Of a DNA stretch of 56,852 nt, positions 10,374 to 51,084 are shown piece after piece. Made by a program: the position numbers and the translations under genes. The notes below the pieces were generated by a model that was not told the DNA's origin, did no database searches, and was given only the letters and a program-made list of their open reading frames with translations. The stretch covers positions 1 to 56,852 of the forward strand of contig JAZSDW010000028.1 in assembly GCA_045531355.1 (NCBI GenBank). Reading direction: 5' to 3'. Source of the DNA: Clostridia bacterium. Its GTDB lineage: Bacteria > Bacillota > Clostridia > UMGS1883 > UMGS1540. Positions within the stretch are counted from its first letter, which is position 1; every line of letters starts with the position of its first letter.

Positions 10374-10388
10374 AAAGGAGGGCGTACA

Positions 10389-11318: not shown

Positions 11319-11338
11319 GAGAGAGAAAGGGACATACG

Positions 11339-22792: not shown

Positions 22793-22806
22793 AAAGGAAA
22801 AACGCT

Positions 22807-24318: not shown

Positions 24319-24332
24319 ACTTGCAAACGATG

Positions 24333-35773: not shown

Positions 35774-36625
35774 ATGCTGCAAATTGTACAAAAGAACCTG
35801 AAATTTAAGTTGGACGGCTTTTCTGTAAGCGCCAGTGTAGATCATCTTATCCGTGCCGACGACATGCCGTCCGATATTCTGATGCAGAATTTTCATTACC
35901 ACGCCATCTACGAGCTTTTTATCGTGGAAGAAAGCCCGCTGACTGTGTATACAGAATCGGGCACCGCGATTTATCGCAGCGGTATCGTCTGCATTCCGCC
36001 CTTTTTAAAACACCGCACTAAGCGAAAGTGCGGCATCCGGATTTTGTTTTCTCTGGATAAGAACACCACAAGCGGCGATTTTGCAAAATTTATGCACGCC
36101 ACCTTTTCGGCCCAAGCGCCAGTTATTTTGCAGACAAATACGGCGCTTTCGTTTTATGCCGCACAGCTCGCCTCCATTTTAAGTCTGGATACACGCGCTG
36201 CAAATGAAATTGCGTCCTCGCTTGTCCGTCTTATTTTTTACAGTATTTTCTCCGGCAATTACGAACTAAAAAATGCGCCGAGCAAGGAAGCCTTCCTTGC
36301 GACAAACGAAAGCTATTTATCGCGCATTGATGTTATGATTGATTCGTTTGCAGAGAACATCAACCTCCAACTGGTGGCAGACCGCCTGGGGCTGAGCACG
36401 AAGCAAGCCTCAAGAATCATTAAAAAGAACTATAAAAAACCGCTTTCCCAGCTTTTGTGCGAAAAGCGCCTTTCCGTCGCTGCGGAGCTTCTTCTCCGGA
36501 GCGACAAAACGATTCTGGAGATTGTTGACTTTGTCCATTTTCCGTCCGAAAGCTATTTTTACCGCAAATTCAAAGAAGCCTTTGGCTGTACGCCGCTGGC
36601 GTATAGGAAACAAAACCGTCTGTAA
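35774..36625 (+). CDS. AraC family transcriptional regulator (divergent from the oxidoreductase/aldolase operon)
   Basis: C-terminal double HTH (VADRLGLSTKQASRIIKK; FPSESYFYRKFKEAFGCTPLAYR). N-terminal cupin-like domain. Confidence 0.85.
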   Translation: MLQIVQKNLKFKLDGFSVSASVDHLIRADDMPSDILMQNFHYHAIYELFIVEESPLTVYTESGTAIYRSGIVCIPPFLKHRTKRKCGIRILFSLDKNTTSGDFAKFMHATFSAQAPVILQTNTALSFYAAQLASILSLDTRAANEIASSLVRLIFYSIFSGNYELKNAPSKEAFLATNESYLSRIDVMIDSFAENINLQLVADRLGLSTKQASRIIKKNYKKPLSQLLCEKRLSVAAELLLRSDKTILEIVDFVHFPSESYFYRKFKEAFGCTPLAYRKQNRL

Positions 36626-36641: not shown

Positions 36642-36678
36642 AGAAAAGCCGGCGTGCCCTTTGGCACGCCGGCTTTCT
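36642..36678. terminator. Bidirectional terminator between araC-like gene and hup
   Basis: gccggcgtgcc / ggcacgccggc stem flanked by A- and T-runs. Confidence 0.7.
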
Positions 36679-36689
36679 TTTTGTTATTC

Positions 36690-36962
36690 TTATTTTACGA
36701 GATCCTTCAGCGCCTTGCCGGCCTTAAATACCGGAACATTGGCGGCAGGAATCTGCACCGTGGCACCGGTTTGCGGGTTTTTGCCCGTGCGAGCGGCGCG
36801 TGTGCGCGTTTCGAATGCGCCGAAACCAATCAGCTGCACCTTTTCACCGCTTTTTAATGCCTCGGTAATCGTGGCGATTGCTGCGCCAACGGCCTTTTCC
36901 GCGTCCTTCTTGGACAGCTCTGCCTTGGCAGCAACTGCCGAAATGAGTTCTGCTTTATTCAC
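36690..36962 (-). CDS. hup: DNA-binding protein HU
   Basis: (M)[10 protein letters not shown]...[24 protein letters not shown] start at 36962 follows GGAAGGAG and gives the canonical 90 aa. Confidence 0.9.
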
Positions 36963-36996
36963 ATCTTTCACTCCTTCCGTTTCCTAGCATGTTCCC

Positions 36997-37025
36997 ATTG
37001 TATCACTCCGGAACCGGAATTTCAA
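36997..37025 (-). promoter_or_regulatory. Sigma-A promoter of hup
   Basis: On the minus strand: TTGAAA, 17 nt, TACAAT. Confidence 0.55.
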
Positions 37026-37067: not shown

Positions 37068-37625
37068 TTATTTCTGTGCGTTTAGATAAGCGGCTCTGCC
37101 TTCTTCGTAGAGATTTCTGCCGGTGCTATCAATAATGACAACGAGCGGCATATCCTCAACATAAAGCTTTCTTAGCGCTTCGGCGCCCAAATCCTCATAG
37201 GCAATAAGCTCCGCGCTTTTGATGCACTTTGCCAGCAGTGCGCCCGCGCCGCCGATGGCGCCAAAATATACGCCGTCATTCTCCTTCATCGCCTCTACGA
37301 CCTCAGGGAGCCGTGCACCCTTTCCAATCATACCGCGTGCGCCGACGCGCATCATGGTAGGCGCATAGGCGTCCATTCTTCCGCTTGTCGTAGGGCCTGC
37401 CGAGCCGATGACCTGTCCCGGCTTTGCCGGCGTAGGACCTACATAATAGATGGTCGCATCCTGCGGGTCAAACGGCAATTTCTCGCCGCGAGAGAGTGCC
37501 TCGCACATTCTTTTGTGGCCCGCGTCACGCGAGGTATAAATTGTACCGGTAAGAAGCACCTCATCGCCGGCCTTTAAGGTTTTTGCAAGCTCTCTTGTCA
37601 GCGGCAGGGTTATTTTTCTCGCCAT
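37068..37625 (-). CDS. Fe-S hydro-lyase beta subunit (class I fumarate hydratase / tartrate dehydratase family)
   Basis: Beta-subunit-like sequence (GTIYTSRDAGHKR, GPTTSGRMD). Lies 1 nt after the alpha subunit gene. Confidence 0.82.
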   Translation of the reverse strand: MARKITLPLTRELAKTLKAGDEVLLTGTIYTSRDAGHKRMCEALSRGEKLPFDPQDATIYYVGPTPAKPGQVIGSAGPTTSGRMDAYAPTMMRVGARGMIGKGARLPEVVEAMKENDGVYFGAIGGAGALLAKCIKSAELIAYEDLGAEALRKLYVEDMPLVVIIDSTGRNLYEEGRAAYLNAQK

Positions 37626-37626
37626 T

Positions 37627-38469
37627 TTAAAGCACCTCCGTCTTGTGTCTTGTCACATGGCAGTTGATATTCACTGCGCACGGCATGCCGGCAATATGCG
37701 TCGGCATCGTTTCGATATTGAGCCCAATAGCTGTCGTTTTGCCACCAAAGCCCTGCGGGCCTATGCCGAGCCGGTTGATTTTTTCGAGCATTTCCTTCTC
37801 AAGGTCGGCATAATACGGGTCGGGATGCGCGGAATCAATCGGCCGCATCAGCGCTTTTTTCGCAAGAAGCGCCGCTTTGTCAAAGGTGCCGCCAATGCCA
37901 ACGCCCACCACCATAGGCGGACAGGGATTCGGCCCCGCCGTTTCCACAACCTCCAGAATAAAGTCCTTGATGCCTTCAATGCCATGCGAGGGCTTGAACA
38001 TCCGGATCTGGCTCATGTTTTCACTGCCGAAGCCCTTGGGACCTACGGTAATTTTCACTTTTTCGCCCGGAACAATTTCCGTATAAATCATAGCGGGGGT
38101 GTTGTCGCCGGTGTTGCCGCGGCGCACCGGGTCCTTCACAACGGATTTCCGGAGATACCCCTTGTCATAGCCGCGACGCACGCCCTCATGAATAGCCTCG
38201 GAAAGGTCGCCACCCACAAAGTGCACATCCTGCCCGATTTCAAGGAATACACACGCCATACCGGTGTCCTGGCAAATCGGCACATTTTCGCGGTCCGCAA
38301 TCTCATAGTTTTCGATGATGTTATCGAGAACGCCTTTTGCAATCTCGCCGTCCTCACACGCCCGGCATCCCTTAATGGCGCATTTTACATCTTCCGGAAG
38401 ATGGTTATTTGCATCGATGCAAAGCTTTTCAACTGTATCGGTAATACAGCTTACATGAATTTCACGCAT
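37627..38469 (-). CDS. Fe-S hydro-lyase alpha subunit (class I fumarate hydratase family)
   Basis: Alpha-subunit-like sequence with cluster Cys residues (PICQDTG, GVGIGGT, NINCHV). Confidence 0.82.
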   Translation of the reverse strand: MREIHVSCITDTVEKLCIDANNHLPEDVKCAIKGCRACEDGEIAKGVLDNIIENYEIADRENVPICQDTGMACVFLEIGQDVHFVGGDLSEAIHEGVRRGYDKGYLRKSVVKDPVRRGNTGDNTPAMIYTEIVPGEKVKITVGPKGFGSENMSQIRMFKPSHGIEGIKDFILEVVETAGPNPCPPMVVGVGIGGTFDKAALLAKKALMRPIDSAHPDPYYADLEKEMLEKINRLGIGPQGFGGKTTAIGLNIETMPTHIAGMPCAVNINCHVTRHKTEVL

Positions 38470-38481
38470 AACAATTCTCCT

Positions 38482-39738
38482 TTAGAATAAGATGATTAAA
38501 AACTGCGATATCAAAACAACGGCAATCAGCGCAATCGGATAGGTCGCTGCGTATGCCGCCGCAACCTCTTCCGTACCGGCGGTATTGATAAGCGTGCCGA
38601 GTGCGGGTGTGCTCGTCATGCCGCCTGTAAGCGACCCCAGATTATTGAGGAGGGATAGGCGAAGCACATATTTTGCAAAGAAAAAGCCGATAATCATAGG
38701 CACAGTTGTCATAATGATGCCGTACACAAAGTACATCGCGTCAAAGTTAGCAACAAAATCCGCGCCGCCCGGGATTCCGGCGCCTACAAGGAAGAGAACA
38801 AGCCCCAGCTCGCGCAGAAGCTTTAAGGTAGACTGCTCCGGCATAAGGCTGAGTTTGCCTATCTTTCCGAAATGGCCGAGCAAGAGTGCAACCAAAAGGC
38901 AGCCGCCCGTTGTCGTCAGCGAAAAACAGGTGCCGGAAAGGCCTGCAGATGAAAGCGGGATTTTAATTTTCCCGATTACCATGCCTAAAATGGCAGCGAG
39001 TGAAAATGCCGCAAAGCCGTGGCCGTCGAGCGAGAGAAGTTTCTTTTCTGTCTTTTTCGCATCCACCACGCCGACGCTCGTAATTTTGGCGCGCTCGGCT
39101 GCCATATCAGCCTTCGTCAGCTTCGGAATGAGCTGCACGAAAAGCACAACGCCGATAACGCCGAATATGTAGGCAATTCCGTGGCCGACAGAAACGAGGC
39201 TTGTAAATTCTTCTGCCACCGTGGCCTTCGCCGCGGAAAAGGCAGGCGTTGAGGTGAGCGAGCCGGACATAAGACCGACAATCATCGCCACAAAGCCCTC
39301 GCGACTTTCGATAGAAGCACCATAGCCGATTGCATCACCGATATAAATGCAGGCGATTGCAGAAAGCCCACCGGCCAAAATAACGATAAAGCCGAGAAGA
39401 ACATAGGACTTAAAGTTTTTCTTCATATTGCCGAAGAATTTCGGACCGGCAATAAAACCGACTGAGGTTACGAATAAAACAAGGCCGAGCGTTTCAATAA
39501 TTTCCAGCGCCTTGTCAACAAACGAAACTGCCGCATCGCCCAAAAGAAGCTGATTTTCCAGCGGTGCAAAGCCGAGCGCACCAAATAAAAGTGCCACCAC
39601 AAACACACCCGCATCGCCGAGCGATACGCCGCGCACCGTAATCCGGCCGAGTGCGTAGCCGCCAAACAGAATTGCAAATACGCAAAACATCAGAAAGGTA
39701 ATTCCGGTTACGGGAATTACGCCGCCAAATAATGTCAT
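38482..39738 (-). CDS. AAE (aspartate:alanine exchanger / YidE-like) family permease; putative C4-dicarboxylate transporter
   Basis: Polytopic protein with two internally similar halves. No obvious central TrkA-C domains (418 aa). RBS is AAGGAG. Confidence 0.6.
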   Translation of the reverse strand: MTLFGGVIPVTGITFLMFCVFAILFGGYALGRITVRGVSLGDAGVFVVALLFGALGFAPLENQLLLGDAAVSFVDKALEIIETLGLVLFVTSVGFIAGPKFFGNMKKNFKSYVLLGFIVILAGGLSAIACIYIGDAIGYGASIESREGFVAMIVGLMSGSLTSTPAFSAAKATVAEEFTSLVSVGHGIAYIFGVIGVVLFVQLIPKLTKADMAAERAKITSVGVVDAKKTEKKLLSLDGHGFAAFSLAAILGMVIGKIKIPLSSAGLSGTCFSLTTTGGCLLVALLLGHFGKIGKLSLMPEQSTLKLLRELGLVLFLVGAGIPGGADFVANFDAMYFVYGIIMTTVPMIIGFFFAKYVLRLSLLNNLGSLTGGMTSTPALGTLINTAGTEEVAAAYAATYPIALIAVVLISQFLIILF

Positions 39739-39765
39739 GACAAATCTCCTTTTTTACATACCTTT

Positions 39766-39815
39766 GGGGCTATGGCAAATCTTTCCATTTGCCGTAGCCC
39801 CACCGTTTTCTTTTT
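39766..39815. other. 15-bp stem-loop in the only sizeable gap of the operon
   Basis: ggggctatggcaaat (39766-80) pairs with atttgccgtagcccc (39787-801). A T-rich run follows on the plus strand only. Confidence 0.5.
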
Positions 39816-41412
39816 ATCGTTCGTGCCGTGCGTAATTCGGAAGGAGCATCGGCGACATTCCCTCTTCATGAAGGCCCGCCTTCTCCAGTTCGTCCGCATA
39901 CGCAGCTACATGGTCAAGATTTGCGCTTCCGAGCACCGTTTCCTTCGCGCGCGCGGCCGCGGCCTTGCCCGCGTTTCTGCCGAACACGATAATATCGAGA
40001 AGGGAGTTTCCCATCAGGCGGTTTCTGCCGTGAATACCGCCAACGGCTTCGCCGGCCACAAGCAAGTTCGGAATAGCCTTCGTAAAGCCATCGCCGCCGA
40101 TTTCAAGCCCGCCGTTCTGATAGTGCAGCGTCGGATAAACAAGAATCGGCACTTTGCGCATATCAATGTCGTAGTTAAGATACATACGGAACATTGCCGG
40201 GATTCTCTTTTCAATTGTGCCCGGGCCGCCAATCATTTCAATCATCGGCGTGTCCAGCCATACGCCGCTGCCGAGTGGTGTTTCTACGCCTCGGCCCTCG
40301 GCGCATTCACGAATAATCGCGGATGCGGAAACATCTCTTGTTTCCAGCGGATGCGCATACGCTTCCCCGTCGCGGTTTACGAGCATCGCCCCGAGCGAGC
40401 GGACCTTTTCCGTTACGAGCGCGCCGAAAATCTGTGAGGGATAAGCAACGCCCGTAGGATGATACTGAATCGTATCCTGGTAAAGAAGCGGTGCACCGGC
40501 ACGGTAGCCTAAAATGAGGCCATCGGCGGTGGCGCCGTAATGGTTCGAGGTGGGGAAGTTCTGGTAATGGAGTCTGCCGGCGCCGCCGGTTGCAATCACA
40601 ACGGTTTTGGCGCGGGCCACTAAATAATCTCCGGTTTCCATATTCATAAGAACCGCACCGGCTACCTGTCCCTTGTCGTCCTTCAGAAGTTCAACGGCAG
40701 AGGTAAATTCCACCACCGGAATGCCACGGTTGATAACCTCGTCCCGGAGCGTACGCATAATTTCTGCGCCGGAATAGTCCTTGCACGCGTGCATTCTCTT
40801 GCGGCTTGTGCCGCCGCCGTGTGTTGTGACCATGCGGCCGTCGGCGTCCTTGTCGAACATAACACCGAGGTCGTTAAGCCAGCGAATGGCATCAGGTGCC
40901 TCCATAACGAGGCGACGAAGAAGCTCTGGACGCGCCGCAAAGTGGCCGCCGCCGAACGCATCGAGATAATGCTGCACCGGCGAATCGTTTTCCTTGTCGG
41001 CCGCCTGAATGCCGCCTTCCGCCATCATGGTGTTGGCATCGCCGATGCGAAGCTTTGTGACAATCATCACGCTCGCGCCGGCCTCATGGGCTTCAATCGC
41101 CGCAGAAGACCCGGCACCGCCGCCGCCAATCACCAGCACATCTACATCGTAATCGATTTTGGTAATATCAATGTCCTCGCCTAAAATACGGCTGTTCGAG
41201 TGAAGAAGCTGTGCAAGCTCCTTCGGGGCTTTCTGGCCTTTATTGGGGCCAATCTGTATCGTATCAAACCCATCTTGGCGATAGTCAGGATGGAAAGCCT
41301 TCAGCAGGGTATCCTTCTCTTCCGCCGTCATTCTTCTCGGCTCCGTTTTCATACGCGCTTCGCGTGTGGCTTCCACCTTTTTGATGGATGCAAGCATTTC
41401 TGCAGTAAACAT
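39814..41412 (-). CDS. Soluble fumarate reductase/succinate dehydrogenase-type flavoprotein (FrdA/SdhA/NadB superfamily), non-covalent FAD type
   Basis: GGGGAGSSAA dinucleotide fold, QYHPTG, TEKVRS (Arg kept), TLHYQNGG, GRNRLMGNSL. Asn replaces the FAD-linking His (GDANTMMAEGG compared with RSHTVAAEGG). Confidence 0.75.
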   Translation of the reverse strand: MFTAEMLASIKKVEATREARMKTEPRRMTAEEKDTLLKAFHPDYRQDGFDTIQIGPNKGQKAPKELAQLLHSNSRILGEDIDITKIDYDVDVLVIGGGGAGSSAAIEAHEAGASVMIVTKLRIGDANTMMAEGGIQAADKENDSPVQHYLDAFGGGHFAARPELLRRLVMEAPDAIRWLNDLGVMFDKDADGRMVTTHGGGTSRKRMHACKDYSGAEIMRTLRDEVINRGIPVVEFTSAVELLKDDKGQVAGAVLMNMETGDYLVARAKTVVIATGGAGRLHYQNFPTSNHYGATADGLILGYRAGAPLLYQDTIQYHPTGVAYPSQIFGALVTEKVRSLGAMLVNRDGEAYAHPLETRDVSASAIIRECAEGRGVETPLGSGVWLDTPMIEMIGGPGTIEKRIPAMFRMYLNYDIDMRKVPILVYPTLHYQNGGLEIGGDGFTKAIPNLLVAGEAVGGIHGRNRLMGNSLLDIIVFGRNAGKAAAARAKETVLGSANLDHVAAYADELEKAGLHEEGMSPMLLPNYARHER

Positions 41413-41424
41413 GGCTTTCCCTCC

Positions 41425-42099
41425 TTATTTCTCAATCTCTCTTGTATTATAAAGCTCTTGCATTTCGCTAATCGGCTTTGCCATAACCTTTTCAATCAGC
41501 TCGTCATACGCGCCCTCGTTAATTTCGGCAACGCGTGCAGTAAGGTGCTCTGTCTTCGGAGCAATATATTTACCGACAAGGCGACGGGAAAGAAGACCAA
41601 CCATCGGATGAGAAATGCCGGCCGGGCAACGAACCGAGCAGCAACCGCAGCTTACGCAGTCAAACGATTCCTCGGCACACTTTTCAAATTCGCCGCGCTG
41701 GGCGTAGGCGATATACTGCATAACATTCAGGCTCTGCGTACACGCCTTCGTGCAGGCATTACAGCCGATGCAGCTGTAAATTTCCGGATACAGCTCCATC
41801 ATCACGCGCTGTTCGGGACGGATTTCCTTAATATCATAGGTTCTCTTATCGGTCGGGAAGAACGGGATGCTTGCAACATACATGCCCTCCTGCACCTGCG
41901 TTTGGCACGCGAGACAGGTTTTCAGCTCGTTTTTCCCCTTTATCCGGTAAATCGTTGCGCACGCGCCGCAAAATCCGTGGCGGCAGCCGCAGCCTCTCTT
42001 AAGCGTATAGCCCGCATATTCCATAGCCGTCATAATGGTAAGGTCGCCGGGTACGCTATACTTTTTACCGAAAAAATATACATTTACCATATTTTCCAT
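41425..42099 (-). CDS. SdhB/FrdB-like iron-sulfur subunit
   Basis: 2Fe-2S motif CRHGFCGAC...C, then CIGCNACTKAC and CVSCGCCSVRCP ferredoxin motifs. Ends 12 nt upstream of the flavoprotein gene. Confidence 0.7.
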   Translation of the reverse strand: MENMVNVYFFGKKYSVPGDLTIMTAMEYAGYTLKRGCGCRHGFCGACATIYRIKGKNELKTCLACQTQVQEGMYVASIPFFPTDKRTYDIKEIRPEQRVMMELYPEIYSCIGCNACTKACTQSLNVMQYIAYAQRGEFEKCAEESFDCVSCGCCSVRCPAGISHPMVGLLSRRLVGKYIAPKTEHLTARVAEINEGAYDELIEKVMAKPISEMQELYNTREIEK

Positions 42100-42116
42100 C
42101 GTTTCTGGCTCCTCTC

Positions 42117-42971
42117 TTAATACTCGCTTGGCATTTCATCTATTTCATCGCAGCGGAACACCGGCCCGTCCTTGCAGACATATTTAGAGCCAATATTGCA
42201 TCTGCCGCATTTGCCGACGCCGCACTTCATACGAAGCTCCAATGTGGTATAGACCTGCTCCTTGGAAAATCCCATTTCCATAAGCCCCGCAAGCACAAAT
42301 TTAATCATAATCGGCGGCCCGCAAAGGAGAGCCGTTTTGTCGGTCGAAAAGCCGATTTCCTTAAGGTACGCCGGCACAAAGCCCACATGGCCGTCCCAGC
42401 CTTCCTGTTCCCGGTCAATCGTCAGATAAACATTTACGCCCTCCGTCTTTTCCCAAACCTCGCGGATTTCCTTCAGCTGTACAAGGTCATCTGCCGAGCG
42501 GGAACCGTAGAGGATATCCACTGTTCCATAATCCGCGCGATTGTCAAGTACATAGTTAATTACAGAGCGAAGCGGTGCAAGGCCGATACCGCCGGCAATA
42601 AACAGAAGGTTTTTCCCCTTCAGCTCCGTTTCGACCGGGAAATGATTGCCGTACGGCCCGCGGACGGTAATCTCGTCTCCGACCGAAAGGCTATGGAGAT
42701 AATCTGTAAGCTCGCCGCATTTTTTGATGCTGAATTCCTGAAACTCCAAATTTGTGGGCGAGGAGGTAATCGAGAACATCGCCTCACTCACGCCCGGCGC
42801 ACAAAGCATTGCGCATTGGCCAGGCATGTGTTCAAAAAGCTTCCCGCCGCCCGGCGCATTGACGCGGAAGGTCTTAACATCCGGCGTTTCCTGCCGGATA
42901 TCCGTAATGATGCCTACTTTCGGAATCAGCGTATCTTCATAATACTTGTCATGGCAATTACATTCACACAT
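42117..42971 (-). CDS. FAD/NAD(P)H-binding oxidoreductase with C-terminal 2Fe-2S (FlxA / HydG / AsrB / PyrK-like)
   Basis: FNR-like fold (FSITSSP, FIAGGIGLAPLRS) and C-terminal CGVGKCGRC...C. Confidence 0.75.
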   Translation of the reverse strand: MCECNCHDKYYEDTLIPKVGIITDIRQETPDVKTFRVNAPGGGKLFEHMPGQCAMLCAPGVSEAMFSITSSPTNLEFQEFSIKKCGELTDYLHSLSVGDEITVRGPYGNHFPVETELKGKNLLFIAGGIGLAPLRSVINYVLDNRADYGTVDILYGSRSADDLVQLKEIREVWEKTEGVNVYLTIDREQEGWDGHVGFVPAYLKEIGFSTDKTALLCGPPIMIKFVLAGLMEMGFSKEQVYTTLELRMKCGVGKCGRCNIGSKYVCKDGPVFRCDEIDEMPSEY

Positions 42972-44001
42972 TTTCTTTGCCCTCCTTTTCAGAAAATGCC
43001 TTCATTACTTTTGCAATATTCAGGCCCGTGGGGCACTTTTCCACGCACCGGCCGCAGCCCACGCAAGAGAACATGCCGTCGTACCTTGCCGGATAATACA
43101 CAAGCTTGTGCATAAACCGCTGGCGATATCGTTGCATTTGGCTGGTGCGGTTGTTGCCGTGCGCCATCATCGTAAAGTCTGCATACATGCAGGAGTCCCA
43201 GCAGCGATAGCGCTGCACACCCTGGCTCGTCGTATAATCCTTAATATCGTAGCACTGGCAGGTGGGGCAGACAAAAGTACAGGTCCCACAGGCAATGCAC
43301 GGCTTATACAGCTCTTCCCAAAGGGGAGAGTCAAACTTTTCCTTCTCCACTGCAGCGCCCCAGCCTTCCGTTGTTAAGCCGGCATAGGGGAGGCGTTTCA
43401 TAATTCCGCGGATGCTTTCCTTTTCCGCCTCAACATCCGCCTCGTCGGCAGAAGCAAAAAGTGCTTCGAGCGTTTCGGTCAGCGCTTCGCCCTTTTCGGT
43501 GTTCGCCTTCCAGTAAAGCATATCGCCGATAAAATAGGTGTCAACATCTGCACCCGGTTCGGCACTGTCTATGCCAAAAGTCCCGCAAAAGCAGCTTTCT
43601 TCCGGTGCATGGCACGCGAGCGCCACCACAGTGCCGTGTTCTCTTCTTGCTTTATAGAAGGAATCGACCGGCTCGGAGAGAAAGACATTGTCAAGCACCG
43701 CAAAGCCGCGCGCGTCGCAGGCACGAACGCCAAATACCACAAAGTCCTCGTCCATGCGCTCGCCCGGTGTGACAGAAAGGTGTCCATCCGTCTTTTCACA
43801 GGTATAGAGCGTTTCGCTCTGCGGGAAAAAGACATCTTTTGCAGATTTAACCGTTTTGAGCGTGTCTAAATCCACTTTTGCACCCTCGCTCCAGAGCGCA
43901 AAATTGGTCTGCCCGCCGTCCTCCACCGGCAAAAACAGGCTGGCATTTTCGGAAATGGCGGCAAAAAGCGCCGAAAGCTTTTCCTTTTGTATCTTTTTCA
44001 T
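42964..44001 (-). CDS. Polyferredoxin-type Fe-S protein (FlxB / AsrA / sulfhydrogenase beta-like)
   Basis: CIACGTCTFVCPTCQC and CVGCGRCVEKCP motifs. Start set at ATG 44001 (MKKIQKEKL). Confidence 0.65.
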   Translation of the reverse strand: MKKIQKEKLSALFAAISENASLFLPVEDGGQTNFALWSEGAKVDLDTLKTVKSAKDVFFPQSETLYTCEKTDGHLSVTPGERMDEDFVVFGVRACDARGFAVLDNVFLSEPVDSFYKARREHGTVVALACHAPEESCFCGTFGIDSAEPGADVDTYFIGDMLYWKANTEKGEALTETLEALFASADEADVEAEKESIRGIMKRLPYAGLTTEGWGAAVEKEKFDSPLWEELYKPCIACGTCTFVCPTCQCYDIKDYTTSQGVQRYRCWDSCMYADFTMMAHGNNRTSQMQRYRQRFMHKLVYYPARYDGMFSCVGCGRCVEKCPTGLNIAKVMKAFSEKEGKENV

Positions 44002-44005
44002 ACTG

Positions 44006-44980
44006 TCAACCCCTTTCCCGGCCGGCACCCGGCTCGATATCATCGGTACGGAAATCCGTCAGAGGGCCGCGGGCTTCTGCGTCCGCACCGGCCTGGTATT
44101 CACCATAAAACGCGTCGATGTCGCTGATGAATTTCCGGTTTAAAAGGTGCAAGGGAATATTCTCGGGACAAACGCGGCTACACTCGCCGCAATCGGTACA
44201 TCTTCCCGCCACATGGAAGGCGCGGATGATGTGAAACATCTTTTCTTCAAACGGATCGACATTTGCTTTCTTCGCGCTGTCAAACTTCGTGCTGTCAAAG
44301 ACGCACTTGCGGCAACTGCACGCAGGACATACATTCCGGCAGGCGTTACAGCGGATGCAGCGCGAAAGCTCGCTCTGGAAAAAGGCAAACTTTTCTTCCG
44401 GTGACATCTTCTCGATGGCGCGCACCTTCTCCATACGGTCGGCATCGTTTGTCTCACGGCTCTCGCCGATGATTTCGTCAAAAATCATGTGCGTTTTGCC
44501 TTTGCAGACATGGCACCGCTCGAGCATGGCGTCCCGGTACGGCAGTTCCTTGTCGCCATAAAGCGTTTGCACCTTTAAAGTCTCGCTCGGTGCAAAGGCG
44601 TCTGCTCCCTCGACCGTCAATATGCCGCGGATGCCTGCTTCCTTTATCTTTTCGGCGCTGATTTTCCCTGCACAGCCAACGCCGACAATATATGCCTTTT
44701 CTCTGTCTACTCTGTGTTCCTTTAAAAGCTGGTTAAAACTATAAGTGTCGCAGGGTTTTAAGAACACGAGCGTCTTGCCTTCCTTTTTGGAAGCTTCAAT
44801 CATATATTTACTTAAGTTTGCGCCGCAAAAGCCGTTATACACAAAACTCGAGAGCTCTTCTTCTGTTTCAAAGAACGCCGGCTCGGGATTGTAGGCGAGG
44901 TCGCCATGCTTCCAGCCCAGAACGCGTGCGACCGAGCCATCTGCAAGATGGGCTTTGGCGCATTCGATTACTGCTTGCAT
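44006..44980 (-). CDS. Fe-S protein (FlxC-like)
   Basis: CIRCNACRNVCPACSC and CTDCGECSRVCP motifs. Start at ATG 44980 (MQAVIECAK) follows GGGGGA. The longer tracked ORF overlaps the mvhD-like gene. Confidence 0.6.
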   Translation of the reverse strand: MQAVIECAKAHLADGSVARVLGWKHGDLAYNPEPAFFETEEELSSFVYNGFCGANLSKYMIEASKKEGKTLVFLKPCDTYSFNQLLKEHRVDREKAYIVGVGCAGKISAEKIKEAGIRGILTVEGADAFAPSETLKVQTLYGDKELPYRDAMLERCHVCKGKTHMIFDEIIGESRETNDADRMEKVRAIEKMSPEEKFAFFQSELSRCIRCNACRNVCPACSCRKCVFDSTKFDSAKKANVDPFEEKMFHIIRAFHVAGRCTDCGECSRVCPENIPLHLLNRKFISDIDAFYGEYQAGADAEARGPLTDFRTDDIEPGAGRERG

Positions 44981-45405
44981 CTTAAATCCCCCAATCGTAC
45001 ATTCTCGCCGAGCGAACGGATTTTTTCCACAAAATCGTTCATAACGGCGGAAAAGCGAACGCCCTCGGCAGCGGATACCCATTCTACACGGGTGCGGCCT
45101 TCCTCCACGCCAAGATAGTCGAGCATGGAGAAGAGAAGCGTCATTCTTCTTCTTGCATAATAGTTTCCTGTAGAATAGTGGCAGTCGCCGGGGTGGCACC
45201 CGCAGAGAATGACCCCGTCGGCGCCCTTTTCAAAAGCACGCAGAATGAACATAGGGTTAACTCTGCACGAGCATGGAACGCGGATAATTTTTACATCCGC
45301 CGGATACGAAAGGCGGCTGGAGCCGGCAAGGTCCGCACCGGCATAGCTGCACCAGTTGCAGCAAAACGCAACAATTTTAGGTCTGAATTCTTTTTCTACC
45401 GGCAT
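44968..45405 (-). CDS. MvhD/FlxD-like protein (methyl-viologen-reducing hydrogenase delta subunit family)
   Basis: FCCNWCSYAGADLAG, RVPCSCRV, CGCHPGDCHY. Confidence 0.85.
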   Translation of the reverse strand: MPVEKEFRPKIVAFCCNWCSYAGADLAGSSRLSYPADVKIIRVPCSCRVNPMFILRAFEKGADGVILCGCHPGDCHYSTGNYYARRRMTLLFSMLDYLGVEEGRTRVEWVSAAEGVRFSAVMNDFVEKIRSLGENVRLGDLRCKQ

Positions 45406-47384
45406 ATTGCATCCACCTCCGCAAGAATTTGTCTGTTAGAAAAGCCCTTTAAATCCATCGCGCCGGACGGACAGGCAACCGTACACGCGCCGCATCCCTG
45501 ACAGAGCGCGCTGTTTACAACCGCAATGCGCCGTACCTCACGCACACCGTGGTCATTGATTTCGCGTTCCTCGTATCCAATCGCGCCGTAGGGGCAGACA
45601 TTCTGACAAACGGAGCAGCCGTTACAAAGAAGCGTGTCGGACTCGGCAGTACACGGATTCGTCATAAGCTTATCCTTTGCCAGAAGACCGATAACCTTTA
45701 CTGCCGCCGCGCCTGCCTGCGAAACCGTTTCCGGAATATCCTTCGGCCCCTGGCAAACGCCGGAGAGGAATACGCCGGCCGTCGGCGATTCAACCGGGCG
45801 AAGCTTCGGGTGCGCTTCGGTTAAGAAATTATTCGTATCAATGCTTGCCGCGAGCATGGTGGCAATCTTCCGGACACTCGGCTCCGGCTCAATAGCAGTA
45901 GCCAAAACAACCATGTCCGCATCCATCTGAATCTGACGCTGGTCGAGAAGGTCGGAGGCCTGCACCCGAAGGCGGCCATCGGGCTGGGGCACAACCTTGC
46001 CCACCTGCCCCTTGATATAGTCTACGCCGTATTCCTCCACGGCACGGCGGTAAAACTCGTCAAAATTCTTGCCGGGGGTACGCACATCAATATAGAACAC
46101 CGTCACATGCACATCCGGATACTTATCGCGAATGAGCATGGCGTGCTTTGCGGTATACATGCAGCAGATTTTGGAGCAATACGGCTTTCCCCTGTGGTCG
46201 TCACAACGGCTGCCAACGCACTGCACAAACACAATTTCCTTAGGGGCTTTCCCGTCGGAAAGGCGCTCCAAATGCCCCTTTGTCGGCCCCGCCGCATTCA
46301 TGATGCGCTCAAGCTCTAAAGAGGTAATCACATCCTGACTTTCGCCATACGCATACTCGCCGTACTTTTCGAGATTAATCGTATCAAACCCTGTTGCGAC
46401 GACGATGGCGCCGTACGCTTCGGTAATGATTTCATCCTTCTGGTTATAATCAATCGCGCCTGCCTGGCAAATCTTTTCGCAGAGGCCGCACTTGCCAGTT
46501 TTAAATTTCACGCAAGCCTCGCGGTCAATGACCGGCACATTCGGAATGGCCTGTGCGAAGGGCGTGTAGATTGCGCTTCTTGTGCCGAGACCGCGGTTAA
46601 ATTCGCTCGGCGTCTTTTTCGAAGGACATTTTTCCTGGCAAAGACCGCAGCCGGTGCATTTTGTAATGTCCACGCTTCTGGCCTTCTTCCGGATATCTAC
46701 CGAGAAATTACCGACAAAGCCGGAAACCTTTTCCACTTCGCTATAGGTGTGAATCGTAATATTTTCATGCGCCGCCGCTTCCACCATTTTTGGTGTCAGG
46801 ATACAGGCAGAGCAGTCGAGTGTGGGGAAGGTTTTGTCGAGCTGGCTCATTCTGCCGCCGATGCTCGGCGATTTTTCCACGATGTCGACCTTGTAGCCGG
46901 CGTCGGCAATATCCAGCGCCGTCTGAATGCCCGCAATACCGCCGCCGATAACGAGCGCGCGCTTGGTAACAAGGCTCTCGCCCGGCTTAAGGTGCGTGTT
47001 GAGATGCAATTTCGCAATCGCCGCACGGCCGAGGATGACGGCCTTTTCCGTCGCTTCCTCTATATCCTTATGAATCCACGAGCAATGCTCACGGATGTTG
47101 GCAATTTCCACCATGTAGGGGTTGAGGCCTGCCCGCTCGGCCGCCTTTCTGAAGGTGGCCTCGTGCATACGGGGCGAACAGGAACAAACAACGATACCGG
47201 AAAGGTTTTTCTCTTTGATTGCCGCGGCAATTCTGGCCTGTCCTGCCTCCGAGCACATATACGGATAATCTTCGGCGTGTACTACGCCCGGCTCTTTCCT
47301 TAAAATTTCTGCGACACGCCCGACATCGACCGTTGCCGCGATGTTACTGCCACAATGACAAATAAATACGCCTACCTTCTGCAC
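45396..47384 (-). CDS. hdrA: Heterodisulfide reductase subunit A-like flavoprotein
   Basis: N-terminal FICHCGSNI, FAD fold VIGGGIAGIQTALD, and several CxxCxxCxxxC(P) motifs. GTG start at 47384 follows AGGAGGTG. Confidence 0.85.
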   Translation of the reverse strand: MQKVGVFICHCGSNIAATVDVGRVAEILRKEPGVVHAEDYPYMCSEAGQARIAAAIKEKNLSGIVVCSCSPRMHEATFRKAAERAGLNPYMVEIANIREHCSWIHKDIEEATEKAVILGRAAIAKLHLNTHLKPGESLVTKRALVIGGGIAGIQTALDIADAGYKVDIVEKSPSIGGRMSQLDKTFPTLDCSACILTPKMVEAAAHENITIHTYSEVEKVSGFVGNFSVDIRKKARSVDITKCTGCGLCQEKCPSKKTPSEFNRGLGTRSAIYTPFAQAIPNVPVIDREACVKFKTGKCGLCEKICQAGAIDYNQKDEIITEAYGAIVVATGFDTINLEKYGEYAYGESQDVITSLELERIMNAAGPTKGHLERLSDGKAPKEIVFVQCVGSRCDDHRGKPYCSKICCMYTAKHAMLIRDKYPDVHVTVFYIDVRTPGKNFDEFYRRAVEEYGVDYIKGQVGKVVPQPDGRLRVQASDLLDQRQIQMDADMVVLATAIEPEPSVRKIATMLAASIDTNNFLTEAHPKLRPVESPTAGVFLSGVCQGPKDIPETVSQAGAAAVKVIGLLAKDKLMTNPCTAESDTLLCNGCSVCQNVCPYGAIGYEEREINDHGVREVRRIAVVNSALCQGCGACTVACPSGAMDLKGFSNRQILAEVDAICR

Positions 47385-47388
47385 AAAA

Positions 47389-47778
47389 TCACCTCCTGTT
47401 TCTTCTGAATGCACTGACTAAAAGCTGCTGGGGTGTTTCCGCCTCCACCAGCGTCCCCACAGTATCGGGGGAAAGTCCCTCGCCATCTCTCTGCCGCACG
47501 ACCATCTGTCTGGCCGCGTCAATCAGGCGTGCCGGCTCTACGCTTCTCGGGCAGCGCTCGATGCACGCAAAGCATGCAAGGCATTTCCAGAGAGAAGCGG
47601 AAGAAGCGAGCGCCTCTATGTCGCCGCGAAGCACATAGGACACAAACTGATGGGGCTTTATATCCATTTCCTCGTATGCGGGACAAGTGGCCGAGCACTT
47701 GCCGCATTTCATACATTTATAGGGATTCACACCGCTGATTTCCCGGATGCGTTCCACCTTTGTTTCCGTCGTATTCAC
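47389..47778 (-). CDS. hdrC: Heterodisulfide reductase subunit C-like
   Basis: CMKCGKCSATCP and CLACFACIERCP. Overlaps the hdrB stop by 4 nt. Confidence 0.85.
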   Translation of the reverse strand: MNTTETKVERIREISGVNPYKCMKCGKCSATCPAYEEMDIKPHQFVSYVLRGDIEALASSASLWKCLACFACIERCPRSVEPARLIDAARQMVVRQRDGEGLSPDTVGTLVEAETPQQLLVSAFRRNRR

Positions 47779-48563
47779 CGAAGTGCTCCCTCCTTTACAC
47801 CGAGCGCCTCTGCCAGAAGCTCTGTAAAATAATAGACCGGCAGCTTGTCGCTCTTATTTAAATTATACATGCAAAGCGGACAGGCCGTAAGCAGCATTTC
47901 CGCCCCAAATCCCGCCGCATTTTCCATAATCGTATCGCACATGTTCTTCGCGCGCTGGCCATCAGAAAGCGAGGCATAGCCGCCGCAGCACTCGTTCCGC
48001 ATGGCATAGGAAACGGGCTCAGCGCCTATTGCGCGGATAAAGTCCTCTATAATCGTCGGGCTTTCCGGGTCATCAAAGGCCATAATCTGCCCCGGACGAA
48101 GCAGAAGGCAGCCGTAATAAGCACCGATTTTTCTGCCGGTAAGCGGGTTCTTTACTTTTTTTGCGAGTTCGTCGAAGCCCACCTTGTCCCGCAGAACCTC
48201 CAGAAAGTGCAAAACCTCGGTTTCGCCCTGATACGGCACTTCATTTTGCATATAGAGATTGGCCGCATCCCGGATTTTCGGCACATGCTTCATATCGTCA
48301 TTGACACGCTTTAAGACATGGTGGCAAGCCGAGCAAAGCGTTACAAGCGCCTGCCCCTTTTCTCTGGCGGCGCAAAGCGCGCGCACAGAAGAAAGCTTTG
48401 TGGCAATTTCGTCTGTTCCCAGCGGATACACACCGCCGCAGCACTGCCAATCCTCGACTTCCTCCAGCGTAAAGCCCAGCGCCTTTGCCGATGCTCTTGC
48501 ATACGCATCCAGCGCCTTCGCCTTCGTGCGCAGCGTACAGCCGGGATAATAGCTATACATCAT
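47775..48563 (-). CDS. hdrB: Heterodisulfide reductase subunit B-like (two CCG domains)
   Basis: YYPGCT, WQCCGG and NECCGG motifs. Confidence 0.85.
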   Translation of the reverse strand: MMYSYYPGCTLRTKAKALDAYARASAKALGFTLEEVEDWQCCGGVYPLGTDEIATKLSSVRALCAAREKGQALVTLCSACHHVLKRVNDDMKHVPKIRDAANLYMQNEVPYQGETEVLHFLEVLRDKVGFDELAKKVKNPLTGRKIGAYYGCLLLRPGQIMAFDDPESPTIIEDFIRAIGAEPVSYAMRNECCGGYASLSDGQRAKNMCDTIMENAAGFGAEMLLTACPLCMYNLNKSDKLPVYYFTELLAEALGVKEGALR

Positions 48564-48575
48564 TTGTCGCTCCTC

Positions 48576-49523
48576 CTACTCTAAATCCAACTGTTTAATA
48601 ACATCCTTCAGTACATTGGCGCTGTGGTGCAGCTTCTTATATTCCTCCGCATCCAGCGGAACCGGCAGCTTGCCGAGAACGCCACCGCAGCCGATTCTGG
48701 TCAGCGTACTGATGCACACATCCTCTAAATCATATTCCCCGTGCATCATCGAGGAAACCGTTACAATCGAGGTTCTCGGCGCTACCAGAATGTTACAGAG
48801 GCGGCAAACGCTCATCGCAACGGCATAGTAGGTTGCGCCCTTTCCTTCAATAATCATGCCGCCGGATTTGCGGACACGCTCTTCCATCGTCTCTCTGTCC
48901 ATCGGGGGCAGATTGTCGCCACATGCTTTGGCAAGCTGGGTGTATTCCTCCACACTCACCGTCGAAATGCGCGCGCAGGACCAGGGCACGAACGAAGTGT
49001 CACCATGCTCACCGAAAATATAGGCATGAATGCTCTTTTGCGCTACGCCGAAATGCTCCGAAAGCGCATGACGGAGACGCGAGGTATCGAGAAGCGTTCC
49101 CGAACCGAGAACCTGCCTTTCCGGAAGCCCGGATTTCTTCATAAACACATAGGTGATAATGTCTACGGGGTTGCTTACAACGATATACACCGCATCCGGC
49201 GCCGCCTTGGCAATCTTCGGCGCAATTTCCTTTATAATATCCACATTCGTCTGCGCGAGGTCAATACGGCTCTGCCCTGGCTTTCTTGCGACACCCGAGG
49301 TAATAATTACAATATCAGAGCCTTTTGCATCTTCGTAATCCCCGCTGGTAACCGAAATGGCATCGCGGAAGCTTGTGCCCTGCATAATGTCCATAACCTC
49401 GCCGCCGGCTTTCTTCTTGTTAATGTCAATGAGAACAATTTCTGTCGCCAGACTCTCCGTAGAAAGGGTGTAGGCAATCGTTGCGCCTACGCTTCCGGCT
49501 CCGATAATAGTAATCTTGCTCAT
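48576..49523 (-). CDS. LDH-family NAD-dependent 2-hydroxyacid dehydrogenase with Arg at the Q102-equivalent position (predicted malate/oxaloacetate preference)
   Basis: IIGAGSVGA, the LDH active-site signature IFGEHGDTS, and DTSRLR. The specificity loop reads SGVARKPGQSRIDL (Arg codon at 49284-49286), where LDHs have Gln. Confidence 0.8.
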   Translation of the reverse strand: MSKITIIGAGSVGATIAYTLSTESLATEIVLIDINKKKAGGEVMDIMQGTSFRDAISVTSGDYEDAKGSDIVIITSGVARKPGQSRIDLAQTNVDIIKEIAPKIAKAAPDAVYIVVSNPVDIITYVFMKKSGLPERQVLGSGTLLDTSRLRHALSEHFGVAQKSIHAYIFGEHGDTSFVPWSCARISTVSVEEYTQLAKACGDNLPPMDRETMEERVRKSGGMIIEGKGATYYAVAMSVCRLCNILVAPRTSIVTVSSMMHGEYDLEDVCISTLTRIGCGGVLGKLPVPLDAEEYKKLHHSANVLKDVIKQLDLE

Positions 49524-49576
49524 GTTTTTCGTCCTTTCTTTTTCGGCGTATGCCGTATACTACTTCACTATTATTT

Positions 49577-49605
49577 TTTATATCACATTGTTAAAAATTT
49601 ATCAA
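49577..49605 (-). promoter_or_regulatory. Candidate operon promoter overlapped by a Rex-like operator
   Basis: On the minus strand: TTGATA, 17 nt, TGaTATAAA. The 18-mer TTGTTAAAAATTTATCAA (49588-49605) compares with the Clostridial Rex consensus TTGTTAANNNNTTAACAA at 1 mismatch. Confidence 0.45.
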
Positions 49606-49729: not shown

Positions 49730-50281
49730 TTAAATCGTTATAACGCCCAGCGCACTTAAGACAGAGGTCAGTAAAATCAATAAAATGCACATCGGTGCAA
49801 TATAGCGAATCATAACGATGAAGAGTTTTTTGCCCGCAAAGCGGCCGGTTTTCTCAACCTCCGAAACGAGCGCATCCGGCTTTAGCAAAAAGGCAGGTTA
49901 AAAAGGCTACAATGGGCATTAAAAGGCTATTGGAAATAAAGTCAAAGAAATCGAGGAAGGTAAAGCCCAGAATGCGGATGCGCGACCAAAGGCCGTTTCC
50001 GAGCAAAGAGGGAATCCCCAAAAGTACAGACCCGGCCAGTACGGCAAGGCAGCTCGTCATGCGCTTCCAGCCGAAGCGGTCCTGCAAAATGGAAACCACC
50101 GTTTCCATCAGGGAAATGGACGAGGTCAGCGCCGCAAAAAACACGAGCAGGAAAAAAAGGCCGCCCAAAATTTCGCCGTCAGATACGGGAACCGCCAGAT
50201 GTTTCCGAGTCCCACGGCCGAGCCGGCCGCTGCCAGCACAAAACCGATTTTTCCTGTAAAGATGCTTCTTCCCTGTTGCAT
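49730..50281 (-). pseudogene. Decayed neurotransmitter:sodium symporter (NSS/SNF) family transporter gene
   Basis: ATG 50281 follows GGGAGGAAG and gives [37 protein letters not shown]. The reading then jumps frame to ..[26 protein letters not shown].. (tracked ORF 49854-50420). A third frame encodes PDALVSEVEKTGRFAGKKLFIVMIRYIAP...VITI stop. Confidence 0.75.
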
Positions 50282-50349
50282 TTTTCTTCCTCCCTGTTGG
50301 ATTTTCCACTCTTAGCATGTGCAAATTGATTCCATGGATTGCCTTTTGT

Positions 50350-51084
50350 TTACGCGCCCTCGGGCACGAACGCGGGCATGGGACGAAGCTTAAAGAGATT
50401 CGCCCGGTGCCGTCGGTCAATCTTTTCCTTTATGTCAGCATCCGGAATCGCATTGTTTCGGATATAGGCGTCGAGCACCTTATAGGTAAAGCCGAGGTTT
50501 TCCTCGTCACTTTTGCCGCAAAGGCCGTCAATCGGCGTTTTGTAGACGAGCGCAGGGGGAAGCCCCAATGCTGTCCCGATTTCGAGAATTTCCGTAACGG
50601 TCAGATTCGCAAGCGGCGAAAAATCGCCGGCTGCATCGCCGTATCTTGTCGAATAGCCCACATAATCCTCGGACAGGTTGCAGGTATTGGCAACGCGCCC
50701 GTCAAGGCTTTGCGAAACGGCATACAGCGTTGCCATACGGATGCGGGGGGGAAGATTCGTTCTTGTCTGCGCCGTCACCGCCAAATCCGCCGGAAGGCTC
50801 GCAAGCACGCCCTCTACGGCCGCGGCAATATTCACCTCATAATGCCGGATGCCGAGATGCCGGACAAGCGTATACGCCGCATCAATATCGGCCTGCTCGC
50901 CGCAGGGCATCAAAACGCCGACAACGCGTTCTTTCCCAAGTGCCCTTTCGCACAGCGCCGCCACAACCGAGCTGTCCTTGCCGCCGGAAATGCCGATAAC
51001 CGCCGGCGACGCGGGGCCGTTTTCCTTAAAAAAATCCCGAATCCATGCTATGCAATCCTTCGTGACCTTCTCCGCATCAAACAT
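50350..51084 (-). CDS. nadE: Ammonia-dependent NAD+ synthetase
   Basis: PP-loop GISGGKDSSV and NadE-like length (244 aa). Confidence 0.85.
   Translation of the reverse strand: MFDAEKVTKDCIAWIRDFFKENGPASPAVIGISGGKDSSVVAALCERALGKERVVGVLMPCGEQADIDAAYTLVRHLGIRHYEVNIAAAVEGVLASLPADLAVTAQTRTNLPPRIRMATLYAVSQSLDGRVANTCNLSEDYVGYSTRYGDAAGDFSPLANLTVTEILEIGTALGLPPALVYKTPIDGLCGKSDEENLGFTYKVLDAYIRNNAIPDADIKEKIDRRHRANLFKLRPMPAFVPEGA

Follow-up and report, generated by a model that had tools for sequence, protein, structure and literature searches.

A stretch of 56,852 nucleotides of Clostridia bacterium DNA (GenBank assembly GCA_045531355.1, contig JAZSDW010000028.1), referred to here as the window, carries a compact minus-strand operon (37068-49523) in which Flx-Hdr genes are joined to genes for an anchorless fumarate reductase-like enzyme, a fumarase, a dehydrogenase and a permease. 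Inspection of the open reading frames (ORFs) of the window finds 13 intact, co-directional ORFs in the transcription order mdh, hdrB, hdrC, hdrA, mvhD/flxD, flxC, flxB, flxA, frdB-like, frdA-like, AAE permease, fumA and fumB, each preceded by a GGAGG-like ribosome-binding site (Table 1). When start codons are picked for their ribosome-binding sites and for agreement with the length of orthologues, the genes are separated in turn by 12, -4, 4, -10, -13, 4, -8, 17, 12, 75, 12 and 1 nt. These recomputed values match an earlier description made from the letters alone (the sequence-only reading), which had reported 13 packed minus-strand genes with gaps of -13 to +17 nt and one 75-nt exception at 39739-39813. 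That description had set the limits of the region at 37068-49605. Its gene content holds, whereas coding ends at 49523 with mdh, the first gene; 49524-49605 is non-coding leader and promoter, and 49605 belongs to the -35 box of a promoter-like site.

Table 1. Genes and signals of the operon, in transcription order (aa, amino acids; FAD, flavin adenine dinucleotide; Fe-S, iron-sulfur; LDH, lactate dehydrogenase)
Feature	Position	Strand	Product	Domains and remarks
Promoter-like site	49577..49605	-		TTGATA-17 nt-TATAAA with extended -10 TG; ~50 nt upstream of the mdh ATG; read from the sequence
LDH-family dehydrogenase, predicted malate dehydrogenase	48576..49523	-	315 aa	Ldh_1_N and Ldh_1_C
HdrB-like protein	47775..48563	-	262 aa	Two CCG domains (PF02754 x2)
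HdrC-like protein, 2x[4Fe-4S]	47389..47778	-	129 aa	Fer4_8 and Fer4_17; HdrC models are the top NCBIfam matches
HdrA	45396..47384	-	662 aa from GTG at 47384	FAD and multiple Fe-S clusters; putative bifurcating subunit
MvhD/FlxD	44968..45405	-	145 aa	PF02662 FlpD, 5e-55; aligns to the C-terminal MvhD domain of HdrA2
FlxC-like Fe-S protein	44006..44980	-	324 aa from ATG at 44980	Fer4_8 and a weak FrhB_FdhB_C match
FlxB-like Fe-S protein	42964..44001	-	345 aa from ATG at 44001	AsrA/HydB-type; Fer4_22; matches sulfhydrogenase beta and AsrA models
FlxA-like FNR-fold FAD/NAD(P)H protein	42117..42971	-	284 aa	FAD_binding_6, NAD_binding_1, C-terminal DHODB_Fe-S_bind 2Fe-2S
FrdB-like Fe-S subunit	41425..42099	-	224 aa	N-terminal 2Fe-2S and two CxxCxxCxxxC motifs; Fer2_4 and Fer4_7
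FrdA-like flavoprotein	39814..41412	-	532 aa	FAD_binding_2 (PF00890), 6e-69; predicted catalytic subunit
16-bp stem-loop	39765..39802	-		Perfect hairpin in the 75-nt frdA-permease gap (39739-39813), the sole sizeable intergenic gap
AAE-family (AspT/YidE/YbjL-type) permease	38482..39738	-	418 aa	Asp-Al_Ex x2; YidE_YbjL duplication domain
Class I fumarate hydratase, alpha	37627..38469	-	280 aa	NF004885, 421.8 bits (cutoff 276)
Class I fumarate hydratase, beta	37068..37625	-	185 aa	NF005310, 289.7 bits (cutoff 238)

The FrdA-like flavoprotein has the active site and the fold of a fumarate reductase or succinate dehydrogenase. Residues His318 (in QYHPTG), Thr334/Glu335, Arg359 (of the Arg-Asp pair), His430 and Arg465 align to the catalytic residues of Escherichia coli SdhA (1NEK_A). 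Across 10 aligned family members, reaching down to 41% identity, His318, Glu335, Arg359, His430 and Arg465 do not vary, and Thr334 is replaced by Ser in some. Asn127 stands in place of the covalent-FAD histidine, SdhA His45 (ANTMMAEGG versus SHTVSAQGG). The AlphaFold2 (AF2) model of the protein has a pLDDT of 87.7 and a pTM of 0.89. A fold search returns only fumarate reductase or succinate dehydrogenase flavoproteins among its top 50 PDB matches, led by E. coli FrdA (1KF6_A) and with mycobacterial Sdh1 SdhA also at the top; no NadB is found among the 50. The SdhA-like label of the sequence-only reading is therefore sound as to residues and fold, with the amendment that most of the SdhA/FrdA C-terminal domain is absent and that a conserved 87-residue N-terminal extension with an FHPDY motif, predicted by the model to be confidently folded, is extra.

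The FrdB-like protein is an Fe-S protein as had been claimed, with four cysteines in both cluster motifs, though its likeness to SdhB is weak by sequence (E ~1e-5). A domain search finds no CCG domain in it. A frdB-like gene always adjoins the flavoprotein gene (77/77 loci), and a natural 727-aa fusion in the family alignment (P0123), in which the FrdB-like part is joined to the N-terminus of the FrdA-like part, supports an FrdAB complex. The claim that no membrane anchor is encoded also stands: no anchor gene lies in the cluster, its gaps are too small to hide one, and the AAE permease is its sole membrane protein.

The flavoprotein scores below the cutoff of every curated family model. TfrA (NF004900) scores best at 330 bits (cutoff 718), followed by SdhA/FrdA and then by NadB (250-253 bits, cutoffs 453-639), and no cutoff is passed. 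Assignment to TfrA at the equivalog level is rejected on this score, and the FrdB-like protein reaches 29.9 bits against the TfrB model NF004898 (cutoff 385). Assignment to NadB at the family level is likewise rejected, given the scores below cutoff, the dedicated Fe-S partner, the fumarase and malate dehydrogenase (MDH) neighbours and the lack of nadA or nadC nearby. AprA was discarded because no apr-type model is among the best matches and neither sat nor aprB is present; the resemblance is one of analogy only, AprA being a flavoprotein of the FrdA superfamily that works with the Hdr-like Qmo complex.

Upstream of frdBA, the operon encodes the full FlxABCD-HdrABC set, with HdrA, HdrB and HdrC together and FlxD, FlxC, FlxB and FlxA directly downstream of them. 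HdrA scores 800 bits against the HdrA2 model and aligns end-to-end with the structurally solved bifurcating methanogen HdrA (691 bits, ~55% identity), keeping the N-terminal, inserted and C-terminal Fe-S motifs in that alignment. The HdrB-like protein matches methanogen HdrB (5ODC_B) at 2e-29, and both CCG cysteine sets align. Its best NCBIfam matches are SdhE of methylmenaquinol:fumarate reductase (146.7 bits, cutoff 500) and HdrB (129.2 bits), both below cutoff. The FlxA-like protein matches HydG, AsrB and PyrK-type models and is the predicted entry point for NAD(P)H. Domain searches agree with the earlier calls for HdrB, HdrC, HdrA, MvhD/FlxD, the two Fe-S proteins, FNR-fold FlxA, the AAE permease and class I fumarase. 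The further statement that dsrC is missing is upheld to the extent that inspection of ORFs of at least 60 aa, with no search by hidden Markov model (HMM), finds no DsrC-like small ORF in the cluster or the window.

The dehydrogenase at the head of the operon passes the NCBIfam cutoffs of both L-LDH and MDH, and HMM score alone would name it L-LDH. Within the LDH/MDH family, specificity for oxaloacetate is conferred by an arginine at position 102. In the specificity loop of this enzyme, GVARKPGQSR, the Q102R position is occupied by such an arginine (Arg102), as is typical of MDH, and the RKPG loop is kept in all matched mdh orthologues upstream of hdrB. The LDH-family assignment made earlier is thus right as to family, and the loop points to MDH. 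The AAE permease is a candidate C4-dicarboxylate or succinate transporter.

The linkage of these genes extends well beyond one genome. In a family search with the flavoprotein, all 8000 scored word-sharing candidates have E <=1e-30, the best 120 being 87-92% identical; about one match in ten carries a source name, and the names are Ruminococcaceae, Oscillospiraceae or Clostridia metagenome-assembled genomes. The first syntenic locus came from a 90%-cluster relative of the flavoprotein (P0099). Scanning species-representative genomes, one for each species, confirmed at least 596 relatives, and linkage was counted by tblastn with the 13 window proteins on the best 80 of these (70-92% identity), with loci that have enough flank as denominators. 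The best 80 come from Oscillospiraceae, Acutalibacteraceae, Lachnospiraceae (Dorea, Blautia, Mediterraneibacter, Fusicatenibacter, Sporofaciens and Ohessyouella), Christensenella tenuis and Anaerovoracaceae. The core hdrB-hdrC-hdrA-mvhD-flxC-flxB-flxA-frdB-frdA is complete and colinear in 56/56 informative loci, which cover Oscillospiraceae, Acutalibacteraceae, Lachnospiraceae, Christensenella and Anaerovoracaceae; the linkage, put to the comparative check proposed in the sequence-only reading, is not due to chance. A gene for MDH lies upstream in 42/52 loci, and an AAE permease homologue in or near the cluster in 31/40. Fumarase is part of the cluster in 39/40 loci, as class I fumAB downstream (28 of the 39) or as class II fumC between mdh and hdrB (11 of the 39, e.g., Christensenella tenuis). 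The two classes are unrelated, and their alternation in the cluster is a non-orthologous displacement that argues strongly for fumarate as the substrate.

This displacement bears directly on the proposal that the flavoprotein has another substrate or works in another direction, as an L-aspartate oxidase-like enzyme, another enoate/2-enoate reductase, or a ferredoxin/NAD-linked succinate oxidase operating by confurcation. The flavoprotein does fall below every curated cutoff, with NadB models nearly equal to SdhA/FrdA in score; the AAE permease family includes aspartate:alanine antiporters, and the reaction is formally reversible. Nevertheless, the cluster has taken up fumarases of two unrelated classes and an MDH with Arg102, NadB lacks a dedicated Fe-S partner such as is found here, the fold is that of FrdA/SdhA, and nadA and nadC are missing from the neighbourhood. 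In addition, a published carrier, Pseudoclostridium thermosuccinogenes, excretes succinate (PMC7282089), and a role of this other kind appears very improbable.

More distant relatives retain the association in altered form. A 50%-clustered search yields few full-length clusters with the N-terminal extension. Maledivibacter halophilus has the shared genes in a rearranged order, fumC-frdB-frdA-hdrB-hdrC-hdrA-mvhD-flxC-flxB-flxA. In Bathyarchaeota-named relatives (~56% identity) the order is porABG-hdrA-mvhD-hdrC-hdrB-frdB-frdA, with no flx genes (contig L157, 744-9415). FrdAB is best read as a soluble catalytic module joined to varied electron-input modules, with Hdr-MvhD as one recurrent partner, and Flx as the apparent NAD(P)H input used in Clostridia. 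As a separate observation on the Bathyarchaeota-type contig, the porABG genes upstream of the hdr-frd cluster encode a three-subunit, ferredoxin-dependent 2-oxoacid:ferredoxin oxidoreductase.

Gene content, intact cofactor motifs, catalytic residues, fold and the strictly conserved linkage make an NAD(P)H-driven, quinone-independent fumarate reductase using Flx-Hdr a well supported prediction. That Flx-Hdr and anchorless FrdAB would act together in a cytoplasmic oxaloacetate/malate-to-succinate branch, as the sequence-only reading proposed, is strongly backed by the core linkage, the two non-homologous fumarases, the Maledivibacter cluster, the FrdB-FrdA fusion, the active site and the fold. 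The best explanation as a whole, to which we assign a probability of roughly 0.6, is a quinone-independent reductive C4 branch whose FrdAB would be fed by a bifurcating FlxABCD-HdrABC. The Arg102-type enzyme would convert oxaloacetate to malate, FumAB would dehydrate malate to fumarate, and the soluble FrdAB-type enzyme, with non-covalent FAD and a subunit carrying 2Fe-2S and two 4Fe-4S clusters, would reduce fumarate to succinate; the AAE permease would carry a C4 acid over the membrane. Electrons would enter through oxidation of NAD(P)H by FlxA and pass via FlxB, FlxC and MvhD to the HdrA flavin, which most likely bifurcates. The uphill electron would reach ferredoxin (Fd) via the ferredoxin domains of HdrA, and the downhill electron would travel through HdrC and HdrB to FrdB, the FAD of FrdA and fumarate. 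The net reaction would be 2 NAD(P)H + Fd(ox) + fumarate -> 2 NAD(P)+ + Fd(red) + succinate.

The midpoint potentials of NAD (-320 mV), fumarate/succinate (~+30 mV) and ferredoxin (~-420 to -500 mV) make the coupled reaction clearly exergonic and comparable to that of Bcd-Etf. The best score of the HdrB-like protein, against SdhE, the CCG partner of a fumarate reductase Fe-S subunit, offers a precedent for electron transfer between an SdhB and a CCG protein. Flavin-based bifurcation to ferredoxin is plausible. From the genes and their motifs we infer bifurcation, a physical complex, NADH rather than NADPH as the donor, and direct, thiol-free transfer from HdrB/C to FrdB.

Several observations weigh against the bifurcating branch. 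The literature searched holds no enzymology for any Flx-Hdr-linked fumarate reductase, and bifurcation and complex formation are both read from gene content. A thiol intermediate is conceivable, given that both disulfide-reducing CCG motifs of HdrB are intact; NADPH may be the donor; and, as the Bathyarchaeota cluster has no Flx, the source of electrons varies between clusters. On a WOR-3 contig, frdBA stands by itself. Among environmental relatives, most of them gammaproteobacterial (45-48% identity, N-terminal extension kept), no hdr or flx lies within 10 kb, and a frdB-frdA-nuoF-like triad occurs in 42/53 informative environmental loci. The presence of FrdAB in such loci means that the catalytic module does not need Hdr. 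Furthermore, the description of the soluble, NADH-dependent Hydrogenobacter fumarate reductase in PMC13147460 includes no coupling to ferredoxin.

These loci lend themselves to a simpler interpretation, in which the operon encodes a non-bifurcating NAD(P)H:fumarate oxidoreductase and Flx-Hdr is a mere electron wire, with no ferredoxin reduced and no energy conserved at this step. In the environmental triad, FrdAB is paired with a single NuoF-like NADH-oxidising subunit, the Hydrogenobacter thermophilus enzyme combines soluble FrdA-type catalysis with NADH oxidation in five subunits (PMC13147460), and sequence holds no proof of bifurcation. Against this stand the strict conservation of seven extra genes in every informative locus and a full HdrA with ferredoxin-type domains, ~55% identical to the bifurcating methanogen protein, which is hard to explain for a wire running ~350 mV downhill. 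The inhibition of P. thermosuccinogenes succinate formation by H2 also fits ferredoxin coupling (PMC7282089). We regard the wire as unlikely.

Three further observations concern the environmental relatives themselves. The NuoF-like third gene encodes 418 aa with Complex1_51K and NADH_4Fe-4S domains (loci L082-L156, e.g., L087 9366-12891), and the frdB-frdA-nuoF-like unit may be a minimal soluble NADH:fumarate reductase. In a few loci (L092 and L094, ~4000-11600), frdBA lies beside pntAB transhydrogenase-like and aconitase-like genes, with no flx-hdr within 10 kb, a neighbourhood reminiscent of the published symbiont clusters for the reductive tricarboxylic acid (rTCA) cycle. A full-length family member with the N-terminal extension (P0132/P0285) is annotated in Prochlorococcus sp. 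MIT 1201, at 45% identity in the family alignment and 46% in the representative search, which is unexpected for an oxygenic phototroph.

The CCG motifs of HdrB invite a different alternative, a thiol-mediated system of two enzymes. Flx-Hdr would bifurcate onto a disulfide, DsrC-like or of low molecular weight, and FrdAB would borrow the CCG site of HdrB as a split, TfrAB-like thiol:fumarate reductase. Both cysteine sets that form disulfide-reducing clusters are retained, no curated model scores higher for the flavoprotein than TfrA, and the FrdB-like (224 aa) and HdrB-like (262 aa) proteins add up to about the 488 positions of the TfrB model, of which each matches a different part. A DsrC-like carrier has also been suggested for the symbiont cluster (PMC11636981). 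Against this scheme, ORF inspection reveals no thiol-carrier or DsrC-like gene in the cluster or the window, and none is conserved beside the cluster in the first syntenic locus or in the Bathyarchaeota and Maledivibacter loci inspected. With one CCG protein per cluster, moreover, reduction and reoxidation of the carrier would both fall to a single site, and the FrdB-like protein has no CCG domain of its own. CCG proteins of the SdhE type are generally known to work with SdhB without thiols. The thiol-mediated scheme is accordingly judged quite unlikely, and direct transfer from HdrB/C to FrdB within the bifurcating branch is preferred.

The bifurcating branch has close counterparts in the literature. 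P. thermosuccinogenes has a co-regulated 'succinate operon' in which seven genes for Flx-Hdr and two for fumarate reductase are combined with genes for a fumarate hydratase and a putative succinate transporter (PMC7282089, 2020). For this organism, NADH-driven fumarate reduction coupled to ferredoxin reduction has already been hypothesised (PMC7282089, citing the 2019 preprint of Koendjbiharie and van Kranenburg), and the authors consider the abolition of succinate formation by added H2 consistent with such coupling (PMC7282089). By its published description, that operon agrees with the one in the window in gene content and, apart from the place of the fumarase, in gene order. In contrast, the window operon is led by an MDH gene, it ends in two genes for a split class I fumarase where the published one has a single fumarase gene at the 5' end, and its host is a mesophilic gut or rumen Oscillospirales-type organism.

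The DsrC disulfide is the acceptor proposed for FlxABCD-HdrABC of Desulfovibrio vulgaris (Ramos et al., 2015, cited in PMC7282089 and PMC6315080). The seven-subunit set in the window has the same hdrB/C/A - flxD/C/B/A arrangement and all expected domains. Unlike in D. vulgaris, no DsrC is seen, and frdBA, the likely acceptor module, lies in the operon at the acceptor position. The rTCA cluster of tubeworm symbionts and Thioflavicoccus also has an AB-type fumarate reductase without an anchor beside Flx-Hdr, for which simultaneous NADH-driven reduction of fumarate and ferredoxin has been proposed (PMC6315080, PMC11636981, PMC13147460). The symbiont tfrAB genes are interspersed with flxABCD-hdrABC and were put forward as such a complex (PMC6315080, 2019), co-expression data were added later (PMC11636981, 2024), and the Flx-Hdr coupling of fumarate to ferredoxin is still called a suggestion (PMC13147460, April 2026). 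Those clusters differ from the window operon in serving an autotrophic rTCA cycle in Gammaproteobacteria and in including korABCD. The gammaproteobacterial relatives recovered here (P0127 group) were considered as candidate instances of the published tfrAB-flx-hdr cluster; they have no hdr or flx within 10 kb on either side and mostly a NuoF-like gene instead.

Methanogen TfrAB is likewise soluble and anchorless, combines an SdhB-like module with CCG domains, and includes the best curated match of the flavoprotein. However, TfrB fuses the Fe-S and CCG modules, which are encoded here by separate genes six positions apart, and the scores lie far below the equivalog cutoffs (330 versus 718; 29.9 versus 385). 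To our knowledge, the CoM/CoB thiols are not expected in Clostridia. In type E SdhABE/MfrABE, a CCG protein (SdhE, the top match of the HdrB-like protein) partners SdhAB; these enzymes are quinone-linked and membrane-associated, whereas the CCG protein of the window belongs to a canonical hdrBCA with a bifurcation-type HdrA and scores 146.7 bits against a cutoff of 500. FrdABCD/SdhABCD share the catalytic His/Arg/His/Arg and Thr-Glu set of the flavoprotein, and differ in the covalent 8-alpha-histidyl FAD site and the membrane anchor with its quinone site, both missing here. Among bacterial fumarate reductases with an FrdA-type catalytic subunit, that of Hydrogenobacter thermophilus (Miura et al., 2008, cited in PMC13147460) is the one characterised enzyme that is soluble, multi-subunit and NADH-dependent. 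Its subunits come from dispersed loci, and ferredoxin coupling is not reported for it there.

The operon is consequently a member of a previously proposed, biochemically uncharacterised kind, with the 5' MDH and the 3' split class I fumarase as local differences. The sequence-only reading was right that no example has been characterised, as far as the literature searched goes, and its implied novelty falls away since the hypothesis is in print (PMC7282089, PMC6315080, PMC11636981, PMC13147460). What is added to the published hypothesis is the breadth and strictness of the linkage (at least 596 relatives; 56/56 informative loci among the best 80), together with the fumarase displacement, the Maledivibacter rearrangement, the archaeal hdr-frd cluster without flx and the FrdB-FrdA fusion as independent genomic support. 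If the bifurcating branch is real, many Clostridia of gut and rumen would conserve energy via ferredoxin (e.g., through Rnf or hydrogenases) when they reduce fumarate, with neither quinones nor a membrane-bound reductase. The modelling of succinate and propionate fluxes, redox balance and H2 production in gut and rumen would change, and Flx-Hdr would gain a defined acceptor outside sulfate reducers.

A broader proposition can be made with odds a little short of even. Hdr-MvhD and anchorless FrdAB would form a conserved, thiol-free bifurcating core from gut Clostridia to Bathyarchaeota, with exchangeable inputs (FlxABC in Clostridia, something else in the archaea). On this view, the physiological high-potential acceptor long sought for Flx-Hdr in non-sulfate-reducers would be fumarate, which would also be the first non-disulfide substrate of an HdrABC-type bifurcase, and the operon would represent a major overlooked succinate/ferredoxin route in hundreds of gut and rumen species. 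Cultured carriers suited to biochemistry include Christensenella tenuis, Fusicatenibacter faecihominis, Sporofaciens musculi, Ohessyouella blattaphilus and Maledivibacter halophilus.

As for expression, a weaker promoter match in the promoter listing overlaps the site at 49577-49605, and an Rfam scan finds no element or riboswitch in the leader. The hairpin between frdA and the permease gene (39765-39802) is ruled out as an intrinsic terminator because the transcribed strand has no U-run; a T-run lies on the opposite strand. The hairpin may instead be an mRNA processing or stability element, or act in partial attenuation. Directly after fumB, with no terminator in between, follows a gene for an HU-type DNA-binding protein (36690-36971, minus strand) with its own promoter-like site, TTGAAA-17-TACAAT with TG (36645-37025 region). 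A strong GC-rich terminator hairpin (36645-36676) stands after the HU gene and is common to a convergent AraC-family regulator gene (35774-36625). On the other side of the operon, immediately upstream of its promoter, 49740-50420 (minus strand) holds the remnant of a sodium-dependent SNF-family transporter gene, in which the N-terminal motif and a C-terminal segment are joined within ~190 codons, and which looks like an internally deleted pseudogene.

The genes around the operon are ordinary chromosomal genes of a spore-forming Clostridia bacterium. A bacterial RNase P RNA of class A (23980-24319, plus strand, 274.6 bits) adjoins spoIIAA/spoIIAB-like ORFs and a gene for a sigma-F-like sigma factor (22457-23938); the sporulation-type ORFs and the sigma factor gene suggest a spore-forming clostridial host. 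A gene for formate-tetrahydrofolate ligase (FTHFS; 5883-7511, plus strand, 866 bits) stands alone, with no other Wood-Ljungdahl genes nearby.

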